Shown here: piece by piece, positions 55,830 through 62,913 of the stretch | Numbering within the stretch: the stretch's first letter is position 1 | Layout of the letters: each line of letters opens with the position of its first letter | Translations under genes and position numbers: made by a program | Notes under the pieces: model-generated | Database searches by the model: none | What the model was told of the DNA's origin: nothing | What the model saw: the letters and a program-made list of their open reading frames with translations, nothing else | Origin: an uncultured Planctomycetota bacterium | GTDB lineage: Bacteria > Planctomycetota > Planctomycetia > Gemmatales > Gemmataceae | Length of the DNA stretch: 64,000 nt | Reading direction: 5' to 3' | NCBI GenBank assembly: GCA_963849325.1 | Contig: CAWKHF010000010.1 | Coordinates: forward strand, 384,001 to 448,000

Positions 55830-58800
55830 ATGATAAGGAAACTCATTCCCTTTCTGGCAGTCCTCGTCACCTTGTCAGCTTGTCACCTTGTCACCTTGTC
55901 ATCTGCCGCCGCCGAAGCGCCCTACGCCGAGGACATGCGTTTCGTCCAGGAACTGCGGACGCACGGCTACAGCGATTTGGCCCGCGAATATCTGCAAAAG
56001 TTGGCCCAGAAGGCTCCCCCAGCCCTCAAGAAAGAGCTGCCGCTGGAGGTCGCCCTGACCAACATGGAGGCGGCCAACGACGAGCCGGACAGTAGCAAGC
56101 GGCTGACGCTGTACGCCCAGGCCCGCGCCGATTTCGAGAAGTTCCTCAAGGACAACCCCGGCCATCCCCGCGCCGCCGACGCCCGCTTCGACATCGCTCG
56201 CGCCACCACCTTGCAGGGCAAAACGCAACTGAGCCGCGCCTTGCTCGAAGACGATTTGACGATGCGCATCGCCGACGGCGTCAAGGCCCGCGCCACGCTG
56301 GTCGAAGCGTTCAACCAGCTCAAACGGCTACCGGCCAATGCGCAGACCGAATTGGCGATGGGCCTCAACCTGCTCGATCAGGCCCAGACGTACCTGAATA
56401 CCGGCAGCGACAAGGAGATGGCCGCTCGCGCCAAGCCGGTCCAGGAGGCGCAGAAGATCCTCGACAAGCTCGCCGGCGGCGATCCCGGCGACAAGATCAC
56501 CTGGCTAGCGCGGGCGTGGGTGGGCCGCTGCATCCACGAGCTGGGAGTGCCGGAAAAGGCGCGGGACAAGTACCTGGAAATCGAGTCGGCGACCGGCTCG
56601 GCCGTCCAGGACGGCAAGCGCCTGGCCCGTTACTTCATTCTGCTGGTCGCCAAGGAAAAGAACGAGGCGCCCAATAAAGAACCCGTCAATACCTACCTCA
56701 TCCGCCGCTGCTCGGACTGGATTCGCGACTATCCCACCTACGCGCGCACTCCCGAGGGTCATGGGGTCCGCTATCTGCTGGCGGAAACCTTGCTGGCCGA
56801 GTCCGACAACCCCAAGCACAGCAAGCCGGAACGCGACGCCATGGTCGTTGCGCCCGCAGATACCTGCGCGACATCGAGCAGACCGAGAACGACTACACCG
56901 ACCGGGCCAAGCGGCTGAAGATCGCCGCCATGAACAAGCAGGGGTTGTTCAAGGAGCCGATCGACAAACTGAAGACCTTCGAGGAGTGTTACGTCCGCGC
57001 CCAGTTCGAGGTCATGGAGATCGGCGCGGACGCCAAGAAGTACAAGGACAACAAGGACCAACTGGAGGGGTCGCGCAAGGCCCGCATCGCCGAGGCCATC
57101 AAGGCGCTCCAGGCCGGATTGGCGAAACCGGACGCCAAGGGCGCCTCCCCGGAGTTGAGCAACGCCCGCGCCATGCTGGCTTATTACCTCATGAACGAGG
57201 GCAAGTATCGAGAAGCCATCCAGGTCGGCGAAACCTTCGCTCGCAACAACCCGCGCCCCAGCCAGGCCGCCATGTCCGCCGTCTACGCCCTCCTCTCCTA
57301 TGGGCAGCTCCTGTTTCAGCGCGAGCGCAACGCCGCCGACCTCAAGGCGCTGCAGGACGACAAGGCGTACCAGGACGACAAGGCGCACATGCTCGACCTG
57401 GCGAAATACATGATCGGCCGCTGGCCCAAGGAACGGGCCGGCGACGTGGCGCGGCACCAGATCGCCCTGCGCCTGCTGCGCGAGGAGAAGTATCTCGAAG
57501 CCGTCCAGACGCTCAGCGCCATCACGCCGGCGTACCCGTCGTACATCCGCGCGCAGTTCGCCCTGGCCCGCGCCGCCCTGCAGCAAGCCGCCCAGGACAA
57601 GGACAAGGGCGATCCGCAACACTATCACCAGCGTGCCCTCGCCGCCCTCGCCAAGCTTCCCCAACCCGACCCCGGCGCCGACAGCGACACCAACCGCGAC
57701 TACGTCCAGGCCAAGGTCATGCTCGCGTCGGAGCTGGCCAGGGACAAGAAATTCAAGGAGTTGGACGCTCTCATCCAGGCGGTATCGCCCAGGGCGGCAT
57801 CGCTACGGCTGGTCGATGATCCAACCAAGGACAAGGAGCTGCGCGGCAAGTTCGAGGATACGTTGGTCCAGTTGTCGCTCTACTCGACGGCGGCCCAGGC
57901 CGAGGTCGAATTCAAGGCGGCCCAGTATGCCGCGGTGGCCAAGCGGCTCGACCCGATCGTGGACGACTTCAACGCCAACAAGCTGCCGCAGCTCAAGGAC
58001 GGCGGCATGGCGCCGGCCGTGTTCGGCCTGGCCCTCAAGGCGAACGTGCAACTCAATAAACTCGACCGGGCCAAGGGGGTCATCAAGGCGCTGCAGCGCT
58101 TGCAGTCCGACAAGGGCGGCGACAACGCCACCACGGCCATCCTCGCCCAACTCGTCAACCTCATCACTCAGCAGGACGAAGAACTGCGCAAGAAGGGCGA
58201 CAAGGAGAGTCTGCAAAAAGCGCGGGACGGCTTCACGAGCATCCTCAACGAAGTCGCCGCCGGTCAGAAGACGCCGACGCCCCGGTTGGCCTACCTGCTG
58301 GCCAAGTGCTACTCCGGCATGGACGAGCACAAGAAGGCGGCCGACCTCCTCCAGCCGTTCGCCAACCAGAACGTCGCCGAGGGCAGTCCCGATGCTCCCC
58401 TCCACCATGCGATTCAGCTGTTGCTCATCCAGGAGATGCGTCCACTCAAGGAAACGGACAAGGCCAAGGAACTGCTCGACGCGATCATCGGCGGCAAGGA
58501 CGGCAAACCGGGTTGGGGCGCTCGCAGCCTCGACGCCCAGAAGCTGCGCGTCATGCTGCTGGAGGACAAGGAGAATTACGCGGCGGCGGCCCAGCTGTCC
58601 GCTCGCTTCATCAAGCAGTTGCTGCCGCGCATCGAGGACAACAAGTATAAGGAACAGTATCTCGAGTTCTATTACCACCTGACCTACTGCATCCTCAAAA
58701 ATGGTCAGGGACTGAGCAGCCCAGAGTTGAAAGCGAAGGCCATCAAGGACGCCGCCCATCGCATCGTCAACCTGGAGAGGACGCAGAGCGGCTTCGGCAG

Positions 58801-58888
58801 CGACGAGTCGAAGAAACGCTTCACCGAGCTACTGGAAAAAGAAGCGGACCTGCGCGAGCAGTACAACGCGCTGAAGGGCGGTAAGTGA
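55830..58888 (+). CDS. Large secreted TPR-like protein, frameshift near 56850
   Basis: Signal peptide, FVQELRTHGYSDLAREYL and all-helical repeats. Confidence 0.8.
55866..55904 (+). repeat. Tandem octamer GTCACCTT (about 5 units) inside a signal-peptide coding region
   Basis: gtcacctt gtcagctt gtcacctt gtcacctt gtcatct. Confidence 0.85.
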
Positions 58889-58891
58889 TCC

Positions 58892-59011
58892 TTAGGGTTT
58901 AGGGTTTAGGGTTTAGGGTAAAGACTATGCGGATTCGAGTGCCGCCCCCTTACGCCCGTGCCTGTGCCGGTTCCAAGCCGCAAACCCTAAACCCTAAACC
59001 CTAAACCCTAA
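58892..59011. repeat. Inverted heptamer repeat (TTTAGGG)x4 / (CCCTAAA)x4
   Basis: Perfect 28-bp arms at 58892-58919 and 58984-59011. Confidence 0.97.
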
Positions 59012-59022
59012 AAGCAGGAGCC

Positions 59023-60135
59023 ATGATCATGAAGCGTCTGGCATGGGCCGTCGCCGTCGTCTGTCTGTTCGTCGGCATCTCGGCGCTTGTCGCGGAGGAT
59101 ACCGTTTACTTCGTGGACCACGAGATGAAGAAGGAACAGAGTGTCCGCGGCGCCATCGAGCAAGAGACGCCGTCCGGCATCAAGCTCAAGACCAAGAGCG
59201 GCGTCAAGGACATTCCGGCCCGCAACGTCACGCAGATCGTCTACGACAACAAAATCGTGGCCGTCATCGACTTTCGCCGGCCGGACGCCAACCTGACCAA
59301 GGCCCGCAACGAGACGAATGCCGCCAAGCGCGCCGACCTGTTGAAAGAAGCCCTTGTCGGCTTTCAGGCGCTCGACACGCAGCTGCGCGGCGTGACCAAC
59401 ATTCACCGCTATCTGCTGTACCGGATCGCCCAGACGACGGCCCTACAAGCCAAGGATGATTCGAGCCGATTGGACGCGGCCATCGCGGCCCTGGTGGAGG
59501 CGAAAACCACCCTGTCGGACGGCTGGGAAATCGTGCCAGCCCTACAACTGCTGGCACGCTTGCAGGAAGAAAAGGGCGACGGCCACGGCGCCAGTCAGAC
59601 CTACTCCGACCTGGCCGAAGTGCCCGGCATTTCTCCGGAGATGAAGCTGCGGAGCCAATTGCTGGGCGCCCGTCTGTTGTTGCGCGTCAGCAAATTCCCC
59701 GAGGCGGAAGCGAAGCTCAAACAGTTGGCGTCCGCGCTGCCCAAGGACGACCCGCAACGCACGTTCGTCGATGTCTACCTGGCCCAGTCGCAGATGGCCC
59801 AGGGCAACGTCAACGGCGTCGAGGCCAAGCTGAAAGCCGCCATCCTTTCCAACCCCGACAGAAACCTGCGCGCCCTGGCCCACAACTTCCTCGGCGATTA
59901 CTACCGGCTCCAACGAGAGCCGGAGCAGGCGTTCTGGGAATACCTCAAGGTCGATACTCTGTACAGCGACGATAGGGAGGAACACGCCAAGGCGCTGTAC
60001 TATCTGTCGCAGCTGTTCGACAAGCCGAAGAACAACCCGGCCCGTGCCGAGGCGTGCCTGGCGAAGCTCAAATCCAAGGACTACGATGGCACGACCTATC
60101 AGCGCATGGCCCAGAGCGACAAGAAGACGCCGTAA
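59023..60135 (+). CDS. Secreted TPR protein
   Basis: Signal peptide; AHNFLGDYY...AFWEYLKVD..Y...HAKALYYL. Confidence 0.82.
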   Translation: MIMKRLAWAVAVVCLFVGISALVAEDTVYFVDHEMKKEQSVRGAIEQETPSGIKLKTKSGVKDIPARNVTQIVYDNKIVAVIDFRRPDANLTKARNETNAAKRADLLKEALVGFQALDTQLRGVTNIHRYLLYRIAQTTALQAKDDSSRLDAAIAALVEAKTTLSDGWEIVPALQLLARLQEEKGDGHGASQTYSDLAEVPGISPEMKLRSQLLGARLLLRVSKFPEAEAKLKQLASALPKDDPQRTFVDVYLAQSQMAQGNVNGVEAKLKAAILSNPDRNLRALAHNFLGDYYRLQREPEQAFWEYLKVDTLYSDDREEHAKALYYLSQLFDKPKNNPARAEACLAKLKSKDYDGTTYQRMAQSDKKTP

Positions 60136-60174
60136 CGGCGAGACGTTTGGCCGTTCTCGCGGGACATTCCGGTC

Positions 60175-60204
60175 TTGCTGGGAGTGTGCGCGGGTCTCTA
60201 TAAT
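60175..60204 (+). promoter_or_regulatory. Sigma-70 promoter of the tRNA locus
   Basis: TTGCTG-18 nt-TATAAT, 21 nt before the first tRNA-like sequence. Confidence 0.75.
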
Positions 60205-60225
60205 CCCTTCATTACTCCCGCGCAT

Positions 60226-60268
60226 GGGGCCGTAGCTCAACTGGGAGAGCGCAGCGAAGGAGGCGCAG
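60226..60268 (+). pseudogene. 5' fragment of tRNA-Ala (acceptor 5' strand, D arm and pseudo-anticodon arm)
   Basis: GGGGCCGTAGCTCAACTGGGAGAGCG is identical to 60744-60769 and is followed by CAGCG-AAGGAGG-CGCAG. Confidence 0.88.
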
Positions 60269-60769
60269 AATGCAGCCGCCACTGGACTGGATGGTGAGGG
60301 CGAATCCATCTTACGATTCCAACCGGATCGGAGCTCTCTCGCAGGCGAAAGTTCTGACTGCCCTAACCGCGGCTGGGAAAGCCGTCCTCGCGCCCTGCGT
60401 TTGCGTCAGGCCGTACGATTTCGTGATTGAAGAAGATGGATCTTTTTTTCGAATTCAGTGTAAGACAGGACGGTTGATGCGCGGCGCGATTGTTTTTCCC
60501 ACGCACCGGCAGCGTGCGGTGAAACGCGAAACGGGTTGGGAGCGCCGAATCGTGAGCTATGAGGGCGAGATCGAGTTCTTCGGAGTTTATTGTCCAGAGA
60601 ATGACAAAGTCTACCTTGTCCCGCTAAGTGAGGTTCACTCTGCATGGATGGGCATGCTGCGCGTCGAGCCGCCGAAAAACAACCAGAGAAAGCGGATACA
60701 ATGGGCGGATGACTACCTGTTGAAATGATTCCTTCCAGCAGCTGGGGCCGTAGCTCAACTGGGAGAGCG
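60252..60769 (+). mobile_element. Putative 518-bp tRNA-inserted endonuclease cassette bounded by 27-bp direct repeats
   Basis: Direct repeats at 60225-60251 and 60743-60769 enclose a single endonuclease ORF. Confidence 0.7.
60270..60728 (+). CDS. PD-(D/E)XK endonuclease, group I intron-associated / I-Ssp6803I-like family
   Basis: G..S(Q)AKV..AL...G..V..P....PYD(50)...FFRIQ(63)CK(65)TG...Y..EIEFFGVYCP..KVYLVP...PPKNNQ; perfect AAGGAGG RBS. Confidence 0.85.
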   Translation: MQPPLDWMVRANPSYDSNRIGALSQAKVLTALTAAGKAVLAPCVCVRPYDFVIEEDGSFFRIQCKTGRLMRGAIVFPTHRQRAVKRETGWERRIVSYEGEIEFFGVYCPENDKVYLVPLSEVHSAWMGMLRVEPPKNNQRKRIQWADDYLLK

Positions 60770-60816
60770 TCGCGTTCGCAATGCGAAGGCTAGGGGTTCG
60801 AGCCCCCTCGGCTCCA
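60744..60816 (+). tRNA. tRNA-Ala(CGC)
   Basis: Full cloverleaf with G3:U70, anticodon CGC at 60777-60779 and a TTCGAGC T-loop; CCA is not encoded. Confidence 0.97.
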
Positions 60817-60822
60817 CTTTCC

Positions 60823-60858
60823 AAGACCTTCCGAGCATTCGGAAGGTCTTTTTCTTTT
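60823..60858 (+). terminator. Rho-independent terminator
   Basis: AAGACCTTCCGA-GCAT-TCGGAAGGTCTT followed by a T-tract. Confidence 0.88.
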
Positions 60859-60872
60859 GTGTCCCAGCAACG

Positions 60873-61655
60873 TCAAAAATCGCGGTGATACCCGGCCGTC
60901 CAGCCGCCATCGACGGTGAGGATGTGGCCGTTGACGTAGCTGCTCTCGGGAGCGGCCAGGAACAGGGCGGCATGAGCGATCTCTTCCGGCGTGCCGGGGC
61001 GACCCAGCGGCACATGCGCCAGCATCTGCCGCACGGAATCCTTGAACAGGCCATCCTCGCCGTAAAAGAGCTTGCGTGTGCCCTCCGTCAGCGTCGAGCC
61101 GGGCGCGATACCGTTGACGAGGATGCCGTGCGGACCCAACTCCAGCGCCATGGCCCGGGTTAGATTGATGACGGCTGCCTTGGCCGCGACGAACGCACAC
61201 TGCAAGCGTAGCGGCACCAGCCCGGCGATGGAGGCGATGTTGAGGATGCGCCCGGATTTCTGTCGCCGCATCACCTGCGCGACGGCCCGGCAGACGAGGA
61301 ACACGCCTTGCAGGTCCACGGCGAGGATACGGTCCCACTCCTCTTGCGGAAACTGATCGATGGGGACGCGATGGGCCAATGTGTTGACGCCGGCGTTGTT
61401 GACCGCGATGTCGAGTCGGCCATGCCGCCGCACGATGTCGGCGACGACCGCCTCGACTTGCCCCGCGTCGGTCACGTTCAGGGCCATCGCCTCGCCGTTG
61501 GCCGAGGCGGCCGCCGATGCCGTCGCCCCCGGTAGGTCGACGTCGGTATAGACGACGCGGGCGCCGTTGACGGCGAAGAGGTCGGCGATCGCCTTGCCGA
61601 TGCCGCGCGCGGCACCTGTTACCAGGGCGACCTGGTTCGTGAGGTTCACCTTCAT
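60873..61655 (-). CDS. SDR family oxidoreductase
   Basis: TGAARGIG, NNAG and NGIAPG; the catalytic YxxxK motif reads FVAAK. Confidence 0.9.
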   Translation of the reverse strand: MKVNLTNQVALVTGAARGIGKAIADLFAVNGARVVYTDVDLPGATASAAASANGEAMALNVTDAGQVEAVVADIVRRHGRLDIAVNNAGVNTLAHRVPIDQFPQEEWDRILAVDLQGVFLVCRAVAQVMRRQKSGRILNIASIAGLVPLRLQCAFVAAKAAVINLTRAMALELGPHGILVNGIAPGSTLTEGTRKLFYGEDGLFKDSVRQMLAHVPLGRPGTPEEIAHAALFLAAPESSYVNGHILTVDGGWTAGYHRDF

Positions 61656-61808
61656 GGCCGGCACCACTCCGGGCAACAACGTGTCGGAAACAGGATTTCA
61701 GCGAACAATGTCGCAAGGTATGCGGGCGGGTGCGGCGTGTCAAAATGAAAATGTCGCCAAGCCGGGGGCATCTCCTTCCGGCGCGTGTTGCTGTGCGGCC
61801 GCAGGTGA

Positions 61809-61837
61809 TTTACAGCCCTTGCGACCCCTGGTAGACT
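61809..61837 (+). promoter_or_regulatory. Putative sigma-70 promoter of the WXG100 operon
   Basis: TTTACA-17 nt-TAGACT with a TG extension. Confidence 0.6.
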
Positions 61838-61874
61838 GGAAGGGAGAATCAACCCATTCGACGCGGGGGTGAGC

Positions 61875-62147
61875 ATGTCCAAGGCCATTGTTGATCCGGC
61901 GGAGCTGCGTCGCTTTGCTCAGAACCTGAAACACTTCAACAACGAATTGCAGCACCAGCTCGCCGTCCTCCAGGGACAGTTCTCGGGACTCGGCGATACC
62001 TGGCGCGATCAGGAGCAGGAGCGCTTCGCGCAGCAGTTCGCCGAGGCCGTTCAGGTCCTCAGTCGTTTCATGGAAACGTCGCAGCAGCAGATCCCGTATT
62101 TGCTTCGCAAGGCGGAGCGGATCGAAGAATACCTGCAACAGCGCTGA
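61875..62147 (+). CDS. WXG100-family (ESAT-6-like) protein
   Basis: About 90 aa helix-turn-helix hairpin with IVDPAELRRFAQNL and a central LGDTWRD. Confidence 0.85.
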   Translation: MSKAIVDPAELRRFAQNLKHFNNELQHQLAVLQGQFSGLGDTWRDQEQERFAQQFAEAVQVLSRFMETSQQQIPYLLRKAERIEEYLQQR

Positions 62148-62156
62148 CATTCTCAT

Positions 62157-62704
62157 ATGAGCCAATCGGCACGAGTCGGTTCCATCGAGGCGCTCGAGGC
62201 GCTGCAAGCCGCGCTGGCTCGCTTCGGGCCGCAGGCGCGGGAAGCGCTCGGCGCCGCCGAGATCGAGGTTCGCCGCGTTTTCGACTACTTGCACGACCAA
62301 CTCGCTCATTGGCAGCGGCAGGTCGAGAAGCGGCACGAAGACGTCAACCGCGCGCGCGCCGACCTCGCTCACGCTCGCGCCATCCGCCAGGGCGAACGCA
62401 GCGGCTACGTCGAGCAGGAGATGGCCTTGCGCAAGGCGCAGCGCGGCTGCGCGAGGCCGAGGAGAAAGTGGTGGTCGTCAAGCGCTGGCTGCTGCACTTG
62501 CCGCAGACCGTCAACGAATACGAGGGACCGGCTCGCCGCCTGGCCGGTCTGCTCGACGCCGACCTCCAACAGGGCGTCGTCGTCCTGGAGAACAAAATCA
62601 AAATCCTCGAAGCCTACTCCGCCCTGGAAGTGCCTCCCTCCGCGTCGCCGGTCCCGGCCGCCCCGACGACGACTCCCCCACCCTCTCCGGGAGGACCATC
62701 ATGA
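62157..62704 (+). CDS. Coiled-coil protein of the WXG100 operon, frameshift near 62440
   Basis: ARVGSIEALEALQAALARF...HWQRQ; continues in ORF 62309-62704. Confidence 0.7.
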
Positions 62705-62913
62705 GTCTGTCCACCGCGTCGATCAGTCTGGCCGACGGGTTGAAGACAGTCGGAGTCCACTGGGATGAGGCCCGCGCGGGCTGGGACGATCCCGTCAGCC
62801 GCGACTTCGAGAATGACTACTGGATTCCCCTGCAAATCCAGGTCGAGACCACCTTGCAAGCCCTCGAACGCCTCGCCCCCATCCTGGAACGCGCCCGGCG
62901 AGAATGTTCTTAA
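62701..62913 (+). CDS. Small WXG100-like protein
   Basis: 70 aa helical protein with W....GWDD...F...Y; ATGA-coupled to the previous gene. Confidence 0.7.
   Translation: MSLSTASISLADGLKTVGVHWDEARAGWDDPVSRDFENDYWIPLQIQVETTLQALERLAPILERARRECS

Follow-up and report, generated by a model that had tools for sequence, protein, structure and literature searches.

The textbook route by which a homing nuclease inhabits an essential RNA gene is the group I intron, and the PD-(D/E)XK enzyme I-Ssp6803I (PDB 2ost) belongs to such an intron in a cyanobacterial tRNA-fMet gene. I-Ssp6803I is said to be specific for the anticodon region, as the title of the 2001 work of Bonocora and Shub reportedly indicates. 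An extract of PMC3384342 describes it as a tetramer on a 23-bp pseudo-palindromic site, and its family is elsewhere listed merely as a homing endonuclease of patchy distribution (PMC3424549). Among endonucleases of other families, the mORFs of fungal mitochondria (Allomyces, Glomus) are, in extracts of their description, endonuclease open reading frames (ORFs) with a foreign C-terminus of atp6, atp9, cox2 or nad3 (PMC3630166), and SegB of phage T4 is, according to the abstract of its description, a free-standing GIY-YIG enzyme in a tRNA cluster that recognises the T-psi-C stem-loop of a tRNA gene and carries adjacent tRNA genes along as it spreads (PMC2330249); an HNH endonuclease beside long tRNA arrays forms a comparable case in an excerpt of PMC8421152. 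Here we describe a locus in a stretch of 64,000 nucleotides (nt), the window, which lies on contig C10 of a Gemmataceae chromosome (G000, an 8.16-Mb assembly in 14 contigs), where a nuclease gene of the I-Ssp6803I family stands between a truncated and a complete tRNA-Ala(CGC) gene. We judge it likely that the locus is an intron-less homing endonuclease cassette in a tRNA gene, which cuts the anticodon loop and carries a probably resistant replacement tRNA.

Three parts make up the cassette unit, namely a ribosome-binding site, the gene for a PF11645 nuclease, and a complete tRNA-Ala(CGC) that represents an allele of its own; as a result, the resident promoter and tRNA positions 1–31 stay as an untranslated leader before the nuclease gene, with the complete tRNA after it. 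All parts lie on the forward strand. The tRNA promoter, as read from the sequence, occupies 60175–60204 (-35 hexamer TTGCTG at 60175–60180, an 18-nt spacer, and -10 hexamer TATAAT at 60199–60204), and 21 nt of leader separate its -10 hexamer from the remnant of the resident tRNA-Ala(CGC) at 60226–60256, which was delimited by comparison with congeners and whose last nucleotides, CAGCG, form the 5' strand of the anticodon stem. Likeness to the congener tRNA genes ends at 60256/60257, the left boundary of the insert, and the insert opens with the ribosome-binding site AAGGAGG (60257–60263), placed 6 nt ahead of the ATG of a free-standing PD-(D/E)XK nuclease gene (60270–60728; 459 bp including the stop codon, 152 amino acids). 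A 15-nt spacer (60729–60743), which is the 5' leader of the carried tRNA and matches the native leader 60216–60225 at 7 of 10 positions, precedes the complete, 74-nt tRNA-Ala(CGC) at 60744–60817 (ARAGORN; 64 bits with the Rfam tRNA model), a non-resident allele with the anticodon stem TCGCG/TGCGA and, on inspection of the sequence, a G3:U70 pair. The native intrinsic terminator at 60823–60858 consists of a 12-bp hairpin (60823–60850) and a T run, and congener G002 has a similar stem after the tRNA of its empty site. The nuclease gene lies where it could be transcribed from the tRNA promoter, which would now drive both genes.

The two tRNA copies share an exact 27-nt direct repeat (60225–60251 and 60743–60769, 518 bp from start to start), which extends to 41 nt at 85% identity. 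When the upstream tRNA copy was compared with shuffled sequences, its score of 28/30 was reached by none of 2000 shuffles, and among the 92 predicted tRNAs of the genome only this tRNA-Ala(CGC) has a partial copy outside tRNA genes within 2.5 kb. The cassette is also lower in GC content than its flanks (0.53–0.56 versus 0.60–0.68).

Comparison with relatives revealed the empty site and showed the two tRNA sequences to be different alleles. In a DNA search of relatives, the upstream gene and promoter were first seen to lie directly against the tRNA, and the locus was then fetched from all 10 congeners. Every one of them is empty: the promoter (TTG..., TATAAT) and leader lead directly into an intact tRNA-Ala(CGC). 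The cassette is present at this locus in 1 of 11 genus genomes, G000, and the site is thus polymorphic for presence and absence among close relatives at one precise point, 60256/60257. In six congeners, the intact gene begins with exactly the 31 nt of the remnant, while two others show one difference and the remaining two show two differences; the remnant departs from the downstream tRNA solely at positions 27–28, where it matches the intact congener genes. The carried tRNA, by comparison, differs from that of each congener at 6–9 of 73 positions, none of them within 65–73. These differences are confined to positions 27, 28, 42, 43, 47, 50, 59 and 64, or a subset, in 8 of the 10 congeners, with 29 and 41 added in G009, and a difference at position 1 or 16 is added in G005 and G001, where their own genes vary. 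The differing sites lie on both strands of the anticodon stem (27/28 and 42/43), at 47, in the T-stem pair 50/64 and at 59, so that the variable loop and T arm are included; the stem itself reads TCGCG/TGCGA in the carried tRNA as against CAGCG/TGCTG in the resident type. Because the remnant fits the congeners and the carried tRNA differs from them at 6–9 sites, the downstream tRNA is a second, non-resident allele, which most simply arrived with the nuclease gene, and the non-resident tract begins at 60257 and reaches about 60807 or beyond. In its 3' half, the carried tRNA has the same sequence as a nuclease-linked tRNA in another Gemmataceae assembly (L036).

The carried copy is the only canonical tRNA-Ala(CGC) among the 92 predicted tRNAs, the other calls being located in an atypical array or spurious-looking, and so it has to be the copy that works. 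Since this tRNA is whole, no splicing is needed. An original prediction from the DNA letters had listed the promoter, the tRNA 5' copy, the PD-(D/E)XK ORF, the complete tRNA and the terminator, all of which were found where it had placed them; its repeat distance of 518 bp and ORF length of 459 bp were exact, and its point that a complete downstream tRNA makes splicing avoidable holds, the upstream piece being redundant, as does its expectation that relatives would carry an empty allele. Its upstream copy of 27 bp corresponds to the exact repeat, whereas the tRNA copy really measures 31 nt. Similarly, the fragment, nuclease and full tRNA that it described are present, but its plain duplication of the tRNA 5' end gives way to a resident allele upstream and a different allele downstream. 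Elsewhere in the genome, two dense arrays of atypical tRNA genes (C4:433996–435092 and C12:838476–839555), which may be mobile tRNA arrays, hold extra Ala(CGC), Ala(GGC) and Ala(TGC) genes with unusual D arms and, with duplicates, raise the total to 92 tRNAs.

The 152-residue protein matches the Pfam family PF11645 (PDDEXK_5) with an E value of 3.8e-28 and 98.7 bits, against a cut-off of 26.1, across profile positions 2–136 of 138. An AlphaFold2 model, built from an alignment of 31 relatives (predicted local distance difference test, pLDDT, 93.4), finds I-Ssp6803I (2ost) as its best Foldseek match (E 2.4e-9, template-modelling (TM) score 0.63–0.65). The four chains of 2ost are the top four matches (E 2.4e-9 to 8.8e-7, TM 0.59–0.67), and SPARDA nuclease domains, Hjc resolvases and restriction enzymes come next. 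Identity to I-Ssp6803I is 18–20%, with a phmmer E value of 0.21. All seven invariant columns of the 31-sequence alignment are retained, including D50 and Q63, and K65, nearly invariant among the relatives, is present as well; D50...Q63-x-K65 aligns with YDL...VQVK of 2ost, the D...(Q/E)xK residues of which we take to be catalytic in I-Ssp6803I. By profile and modelled fold, the nuclease belongs to the I-Ssp6803I family. A search of 60 relatives found the protein in five, of which only that in G022 (53% identity) is of the same type, and searches of NCBIfam and of plasmids found nothing.

The arrangement of remnant, nuclease and tRNA recurs at other loci. Relatives were collected in two sets, a genome set of 39 loci from one-genome-per-species contigs, with 2 kb fetched per locus, and a metagenome set made up of the best 80 of 241 confirmed loci, to which all metagenome figures below refer. 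In the metagenome set, the twelve closest relatives of the window nuclease (49–64% identity) all lie 33–68 nt upstream of a tRNA-Ala(CGC), and five loci repeat the layout with a 5' remnant between promoter and nuclease. Three of these are at Ala(CGC) genes: L091 retains positions 1–34, with a remnant stem of CGTCG and a carried stem of GTTGG; L092 retains positions about 2–34 (CAGCG in the remnant, TGCGG in the carried tRNA); and the remnant of L096 runs up to position 35 (CAGCG), its carried tRNA having TCGCG as in the window. The other two are L145 at Asn(GTT), with positions 1–36 and the stems TCTGA and TGGGA, and L130 at Gly(CCC), with positions about 1–31/34 and the stems CCAGC and CAACC.

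G000 itself contains two further PF11645 members, one convergent with tRNA-Ala(GGC) and one on the same strand before tRNA-Arg(TCT) (L003, 77.9 bits). At L003, a 20/30 copy of the tRNA-Arg(TCT) 5' end lies 19 nt before the start codon, ahead of GAGGAGG, and its score was reached by 0 of 2000 shuffles, a significance found only under the restricted ungapped test; this locus is non-syntenic in the congeners, where no empty allele is definable. Altogether, the remnants at seven loci and four tRNA identities stop in the anticodon loop. The end falls at tRNA position ~30–36, at or within that loop, in the six loci where it is clear, the reading of 31–34 in L130 being less sure, and the remnant stem differs from that of the carried tRNA wherever it is readable.

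Fragments were sought by several routes. The restricted ungapped test, with shuffles, was applied to the 15 same-orientation loci among the 39 of the genome set; the metagenome test covered 70 loci and flagged 17 at p <= 0.02. Eleven of the 17 (L110, L135, L142, L149, L152, L154, L155, L157, L159, L164, L165) proved to be neighbouring complete tRNA genes or generic T-arm matches and were rejected, and the fragment flagged in L106 was weak on inspection; possible degenerate fragments in L035 and in L036/L098/L099 were non-significant or borderline (p 0.03–0.6) and were likewise set aside. Gapped local alignment for far-side fragments at the 39 genome loci returned only the window and an unrelated tRNA-Gly piece in L065, and no 3' fragments were found in either set for nucleases downstream of, convergent with or divergent from a tRNA. 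The piece in L065 (1318–1357) is a 40-nt copy of the 3' part of tRNA-Gly(GCC), positions 36–75; it lies ~240 nt from the complete gene, on the flank that faces away from the nuclease. In L092, L093 and L095, the spacer between nuclease and tRNA holds a promoter-like site, TTG...(17 nt)...TACAAT, and to judge from this motif the carried tRNA of these loci may have its own promoter; the corresponding spacer of the window measures 15 nt.

The anticodon stem offers a hint as to target and resistance. The CAGCG stem occurs in 17 of 28 nuclease-free tRNA-Ala(CGC) genes (8 of 10 congeners and 9 of 18 other relatives); 3 of 4 remnants have it too, but none of 10 nuclease-linked tRNAs; for 0/10 versus 17/28, Fisher's test gives p = 0.0008, a value that overstates the case because the genomes are related. 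Two of 20 fetched tRNAs were left out of this count as Ala(TGC), as was L125, an atypical Ala(CGC) in an array whose stem is also not CAGCG, and the 10 nuclease-linked alleles were obtained after merging the near-identical L093/L095, L098/L099 with L036, and L100–L102 with L037. The variant stem TCGCG/TGCGA of the carried tRNA probably renders it resistant to cutting.

A mechanism can be proposed on this basis. The nuclease would cut both DNA strands within the anticodon stem-loop of a naive tRNA-Ala(CGC) gene, in this case the common allele with a CAGCG stem; anticodon stem-loop DNA is a natural pseudo-palindrome and would suit an oligomeric PD-(D/E)XK enzyme. The break would then be repaired by copying from cassette DNA, with the 3' half of the tRNA as the right arm and, as the left arm, the tRNA 5' part, supplied either by an existing 5' fragment in the donor or through end joining at the break. 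With the 5' remnant as one homology arm and the 3' half of the carried tRNA as the other, the cassette could enter any genome that has a similar tRNA, whatever the flanks. The window and L091 resemble each other in junction sequence, in keeping with one inherited architecture, and the Ala(CGC) remnants end at different points (31, 34, 34 and 35), which fits separate events or small indels. The 27-nt repeat, in turn, would provide a route to loss by deletion, leaving the carried allele at an otherwise empty site; one might speculate that the odd stems of two empty congeners (CTACG in G009, TGGCG in G010) are footprints of such deletions.

Proximity to tRNA genes is a habit of the family as a whole. 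A tRNA lies within the fetched 2 kb in 35 of the 39 genome-set loci and within 150 bp in 30, and the corresponding figures for the metagenome set are 75 and 71 of 80; by chance, 0.63% of positions in G000 would place a 450-bp gene within 150 bp of a tRNA. The adjoining tRNAs are Ala(CGC, GGC), Thr(TGT, GGT), Asn, Gly, Lys, Arg and Ser, in all four relative orientations, and the hosts belong to Planctomycetota, Actinomycetota, Chloroflexota, Acidobacteriota, Eremiobacterota, Firmicutes and Pseudomonadota. Since most tRNA-adjacent relatives lack a detectable fragment and all four orientations are represented among them, the fragment layout is one form of a broader tRNA-adjacent habit. Viruses contribute 23 matching records, and in all four that were inspected a tRNA stands beside the nuclease gene, 2–137 bp away. 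In Halorubrum sodomense tailed virus 4 (L191) and three related haloarchaeal viruses, a PF11645-like gene begins 2 nt after tRNA-Asn(GTT), and the tRNA association therefore extends to archaeal viruses; in one record of a Salmonella Kuttervirus, the annotation gives Met for the tRNA that precedes the nuclease, but ARAGORN reads it as Asn(GTT). In a maximum-likelihood tree, nuclease clades track tRNA identity and arrangement, with supports of 100/99 for Ala(CGC) upstream, 100/99 for Ala(GGC) convergent, 99/98 for Thr(TGT) upstream and 100/99 for Thr(GGT) convergent; the clades also track host taxonomy, so that tRNA identity and taxonomy are inseparable in the tree.

Among 400 other Planctomycetota sampled, PF11645 was found in two, one of which has it adjoining tRNA-Arg(TCT). 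Stops or frameshifts interrupt at least 6 of the 39 genome-set copies, and four more match in the C-terminal part only; in the metagenome set, 2 of 80 copies are broken and 78 intact. Patchy spread and decaying copies fit the invasion-decay cycle of homing endonuclease genes. In the literature searched, which did not extend to subscription papers, the original I-Ssp6803I papers or supplements, no description was found of free-standing PF11645 genes beside tRNA genes or of the truncated-tRNA layout. We tentatively extend the proposal from the locus to the family, at slightly less than even odds: PF11645 nucleases may be widespread, undescribed intron-less gene drives for tRNA genes in many bacterial phyla, phages and haloarchaeal viruses, which cut the anticodon stem-loop and bring in, along with their own gene, a replacement tRNA that resists cleavage, using the tRNA halves as portable homology arms.

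Several arrangements seen among these loci may be recorded here. In L142, L149, L152, L154, L155, L157 and L165, the nuclease lies within a Tyr-Gly(TCC)-Thr(GGT) tRNA cluster, between tRNA-Gly and tRNA-Thr, and in L110, L130, L145, L159 and L164 the nuclease gene is inside long tRNA arrays. At the tRNA-Ala(GGC) loci of G000, G007 and G009 (L002, L007 and L009), no stop codon closes the convergent nuclease ORF ahead of the tRNA, and the ORF continues through the antisense of the tRNA gene, gaining a tail of 20–45 residues, and in L006 and L008 the nuclease stop falls 1–3 nt before the tRNA.

Three other explanations of the locus can be weighed against a homing cassette. The nuclease and tRNA might have come as a module through ordinary horizontal transfer and recombination, tRNA genes being hot spots for foreign DNA, with the nuclease serving the host or its defence (in a restriction-like or abortive-infection role) and not driving its own spread. 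PD-(D/E)XK folds are common in defence, SPARDA, Hjc and restriction enzymes are the next-best fold matches, and nearly all metagenome copies (78/80) are intact; moreover, an identical tRNA in nuclease-free and nuclease-bearing genomes at Ala(GGC) means that tRNA sequence is not always the discriminator. Hot-spot integration, however, would not lead one to expect fragments that end in the anticodon loop at seven loci and four tRNA identities, and a defence role sits poorly with lone genes 0–150 bp from a tRNA in four orientations without an integrase, with clades that track tRNA identity, with decay in at least 6 of 39 genomes and with a characterised family member that is a homing enzyme; we consider it unlikely. 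Alternatively, the nuclease might act on RNA, as some PD-(D/E)XK enzymes do, in which case an anticodon-loop nuclease and a resistant tRNA would form a toxin-plus-immune-substrate module, and the location of the allelic differences chiefly in the anticodon stem would suit it. Given that the closest fold and family are those of a DNA homing endonuclease, that truncation of the resident gene in the anticodon loop is a DNA-level scar pointing to a DNA break, and that the resident allele is gone from the genome, so that no sensitive substrate would be left there, this seems very improbable.

It is scarcely credible that the locus is a group I intron (decayed or very short), an integrative islet that targets tRNA genes or an artefact of assembly, even though the type member of the family is intron-encoded, tRNA genes are classical integration sites and short repeats can in principle mislead assemblers. 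A search of 59900–61100 with Rfam gave no Intron_gpI match on either strand even at E <= 10, only the tRNA and chance-level matches; noncoding DNA around the ORF within the insert amounts to 13 nt before and 15 nt after it, and a complete downstream tRNA leaves nothing to splice. None of the five flanking ORFs (56930–62765) matches an integrase, transposase or recombinase family of Pfam, and the insert, of ~0.5 kb, duplicates the 5' end of the tRNA, not the 3' end as in integrase-borne islets. An artefact is opposed by the different flanks of the two copies and their divergence at positions 27–28, and by the reappearance of the layout in independent assemblies. On these points the original prediction was borne out, since it saw no room for a group I ribozyme and no integrase or transposase nearby; its assignment to the I-Ssp6803I family agrees with profile and fold, and the homologues that it proposed to collect lie beside tRNA genes far above chance, at least six other loci having the nuclease between a tRNA fragment and a full tRNA. 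Its reading of a minimal selfish intron-less element is supported, with the refinements given above; nuclease activity, target, cleavage and homing are what we infer from the sequences.

A number of observations nonetheless weigh against the homing cassette as proposed. A consensus promoter scan lists no promoter at the locus, missing 60175–60204 because its -35 hexamer TTGCTG is weak and fits the consensus at only 3 of 6 positions; the promoter call therefore depends on conservation in the congeners, where the same -35/-10 layout precedes the intact tRNA-Ala(CGC) in 10 of 10. An acidic residue, the helix-1 Glu of many family members, is Ala throughout the clade of the window nuclease. The nearest sampled relative, from the metagenome set, is just 64% identical, so that the sample offers no donor. 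Fragments are a minority feature: only the window and L003 were significant in the ungapped test of the genome set, leaving 13 of 15 same-orientation loci without one, and about 29 of 35 testable same-orientation metagenome loci also lack a remnant. The stem statistics were drawn from related genomes, and anticodon stems vary among species anyway. Finally, at the tRNA-Ala(GGC) locus of the genus, where five genomes have the nuclease and six do not, the tRNA of nuclease-free G003 is identical to that of nuclease-bearing G006; resistance via tRNA sequence therefore cannot be general, and for this clade either flanking sequence must form part of the target or protection is achieved by other means.

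Beyond the cassette, a tetratricopeptide repeat (TPR)-like gene (59023–60135) lies upstream and a convergent short-chain dehydrogenase gene (60873–61679) downstream. Farther along the forward strand, the window encodes a 92-residue WXG100-family protein (61869–62147; PF06013, E 7.5e-9) and then a 203-residue ORF without a Pfam match, which together may represent, in a planctomycete, a pair of type VII-like secretion substrates.

As a homing cassette, the locus would represent a second solution to living in an essential RNA gene, in which a spare gene copy is carried and the broken resident copy is left as a leader. It ties the sole characterised PD-(D/E)XK homing enzyme, which is intron-borne and tRNA-fMet-specific, to a larger free-standing, tRNA-tracking family across phyla and viruses. 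Should these nucleases be as specific as the match of clade to tRNA suggests, they would offer a ready panel of ~150-residue enzymes with long natural targets. Some of the allelic turnover seen in the anticodon stems of tRNAs may also be due to them, and if the gene-drive reading of the family is true, repeated invasion and loss would be a hidden force in compensatory anticodon-stem turnover and in the transfer of tRNA alleles between species.

The window nuclease and I-Ssp6803I share a Pfam family and, in alignment, the D...QxK motif, and the insertion point in the window is likewise the anticodon loop of a tRNA gene; unlike I-Ssp6803I, the window element has no ribozyme, carries a whole replacement tRNA and resides in another host phylum and another tRNA. 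With the fungal mitochondrial mORFs, as far as the extracts describe them, it shares a free-standing endonuclease gene in an essential gene, a foreign copy that replaces the native part, and a retained native remnant; in both, this remnant is like the sequence of close relatives, and it is the inserted copy that diverges (PMC3630166). According to the same extracts, mORFs encode LAGLIDADG or GIY-YIG enzymes, occupy organelle protein-coding genes and duplicate the 3' end (PMC3630166), whereas the window cassette has a PD-(D/E)XK enzyme, a bacterial chromosome, a tRNA gene, a 5' remnant and a whole carried gene. SegB and the window nuclease are both intron-less and adjoin tRNA genes; SegB belongs to another nuclease family and moves from phage to phage in co-infection, and the abstract of its description mentions no truncated resident tRNA (PMC2330249). 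The closest design is that of the fungal mitochondrial mORFs and the closest niche that of T4 SegB.

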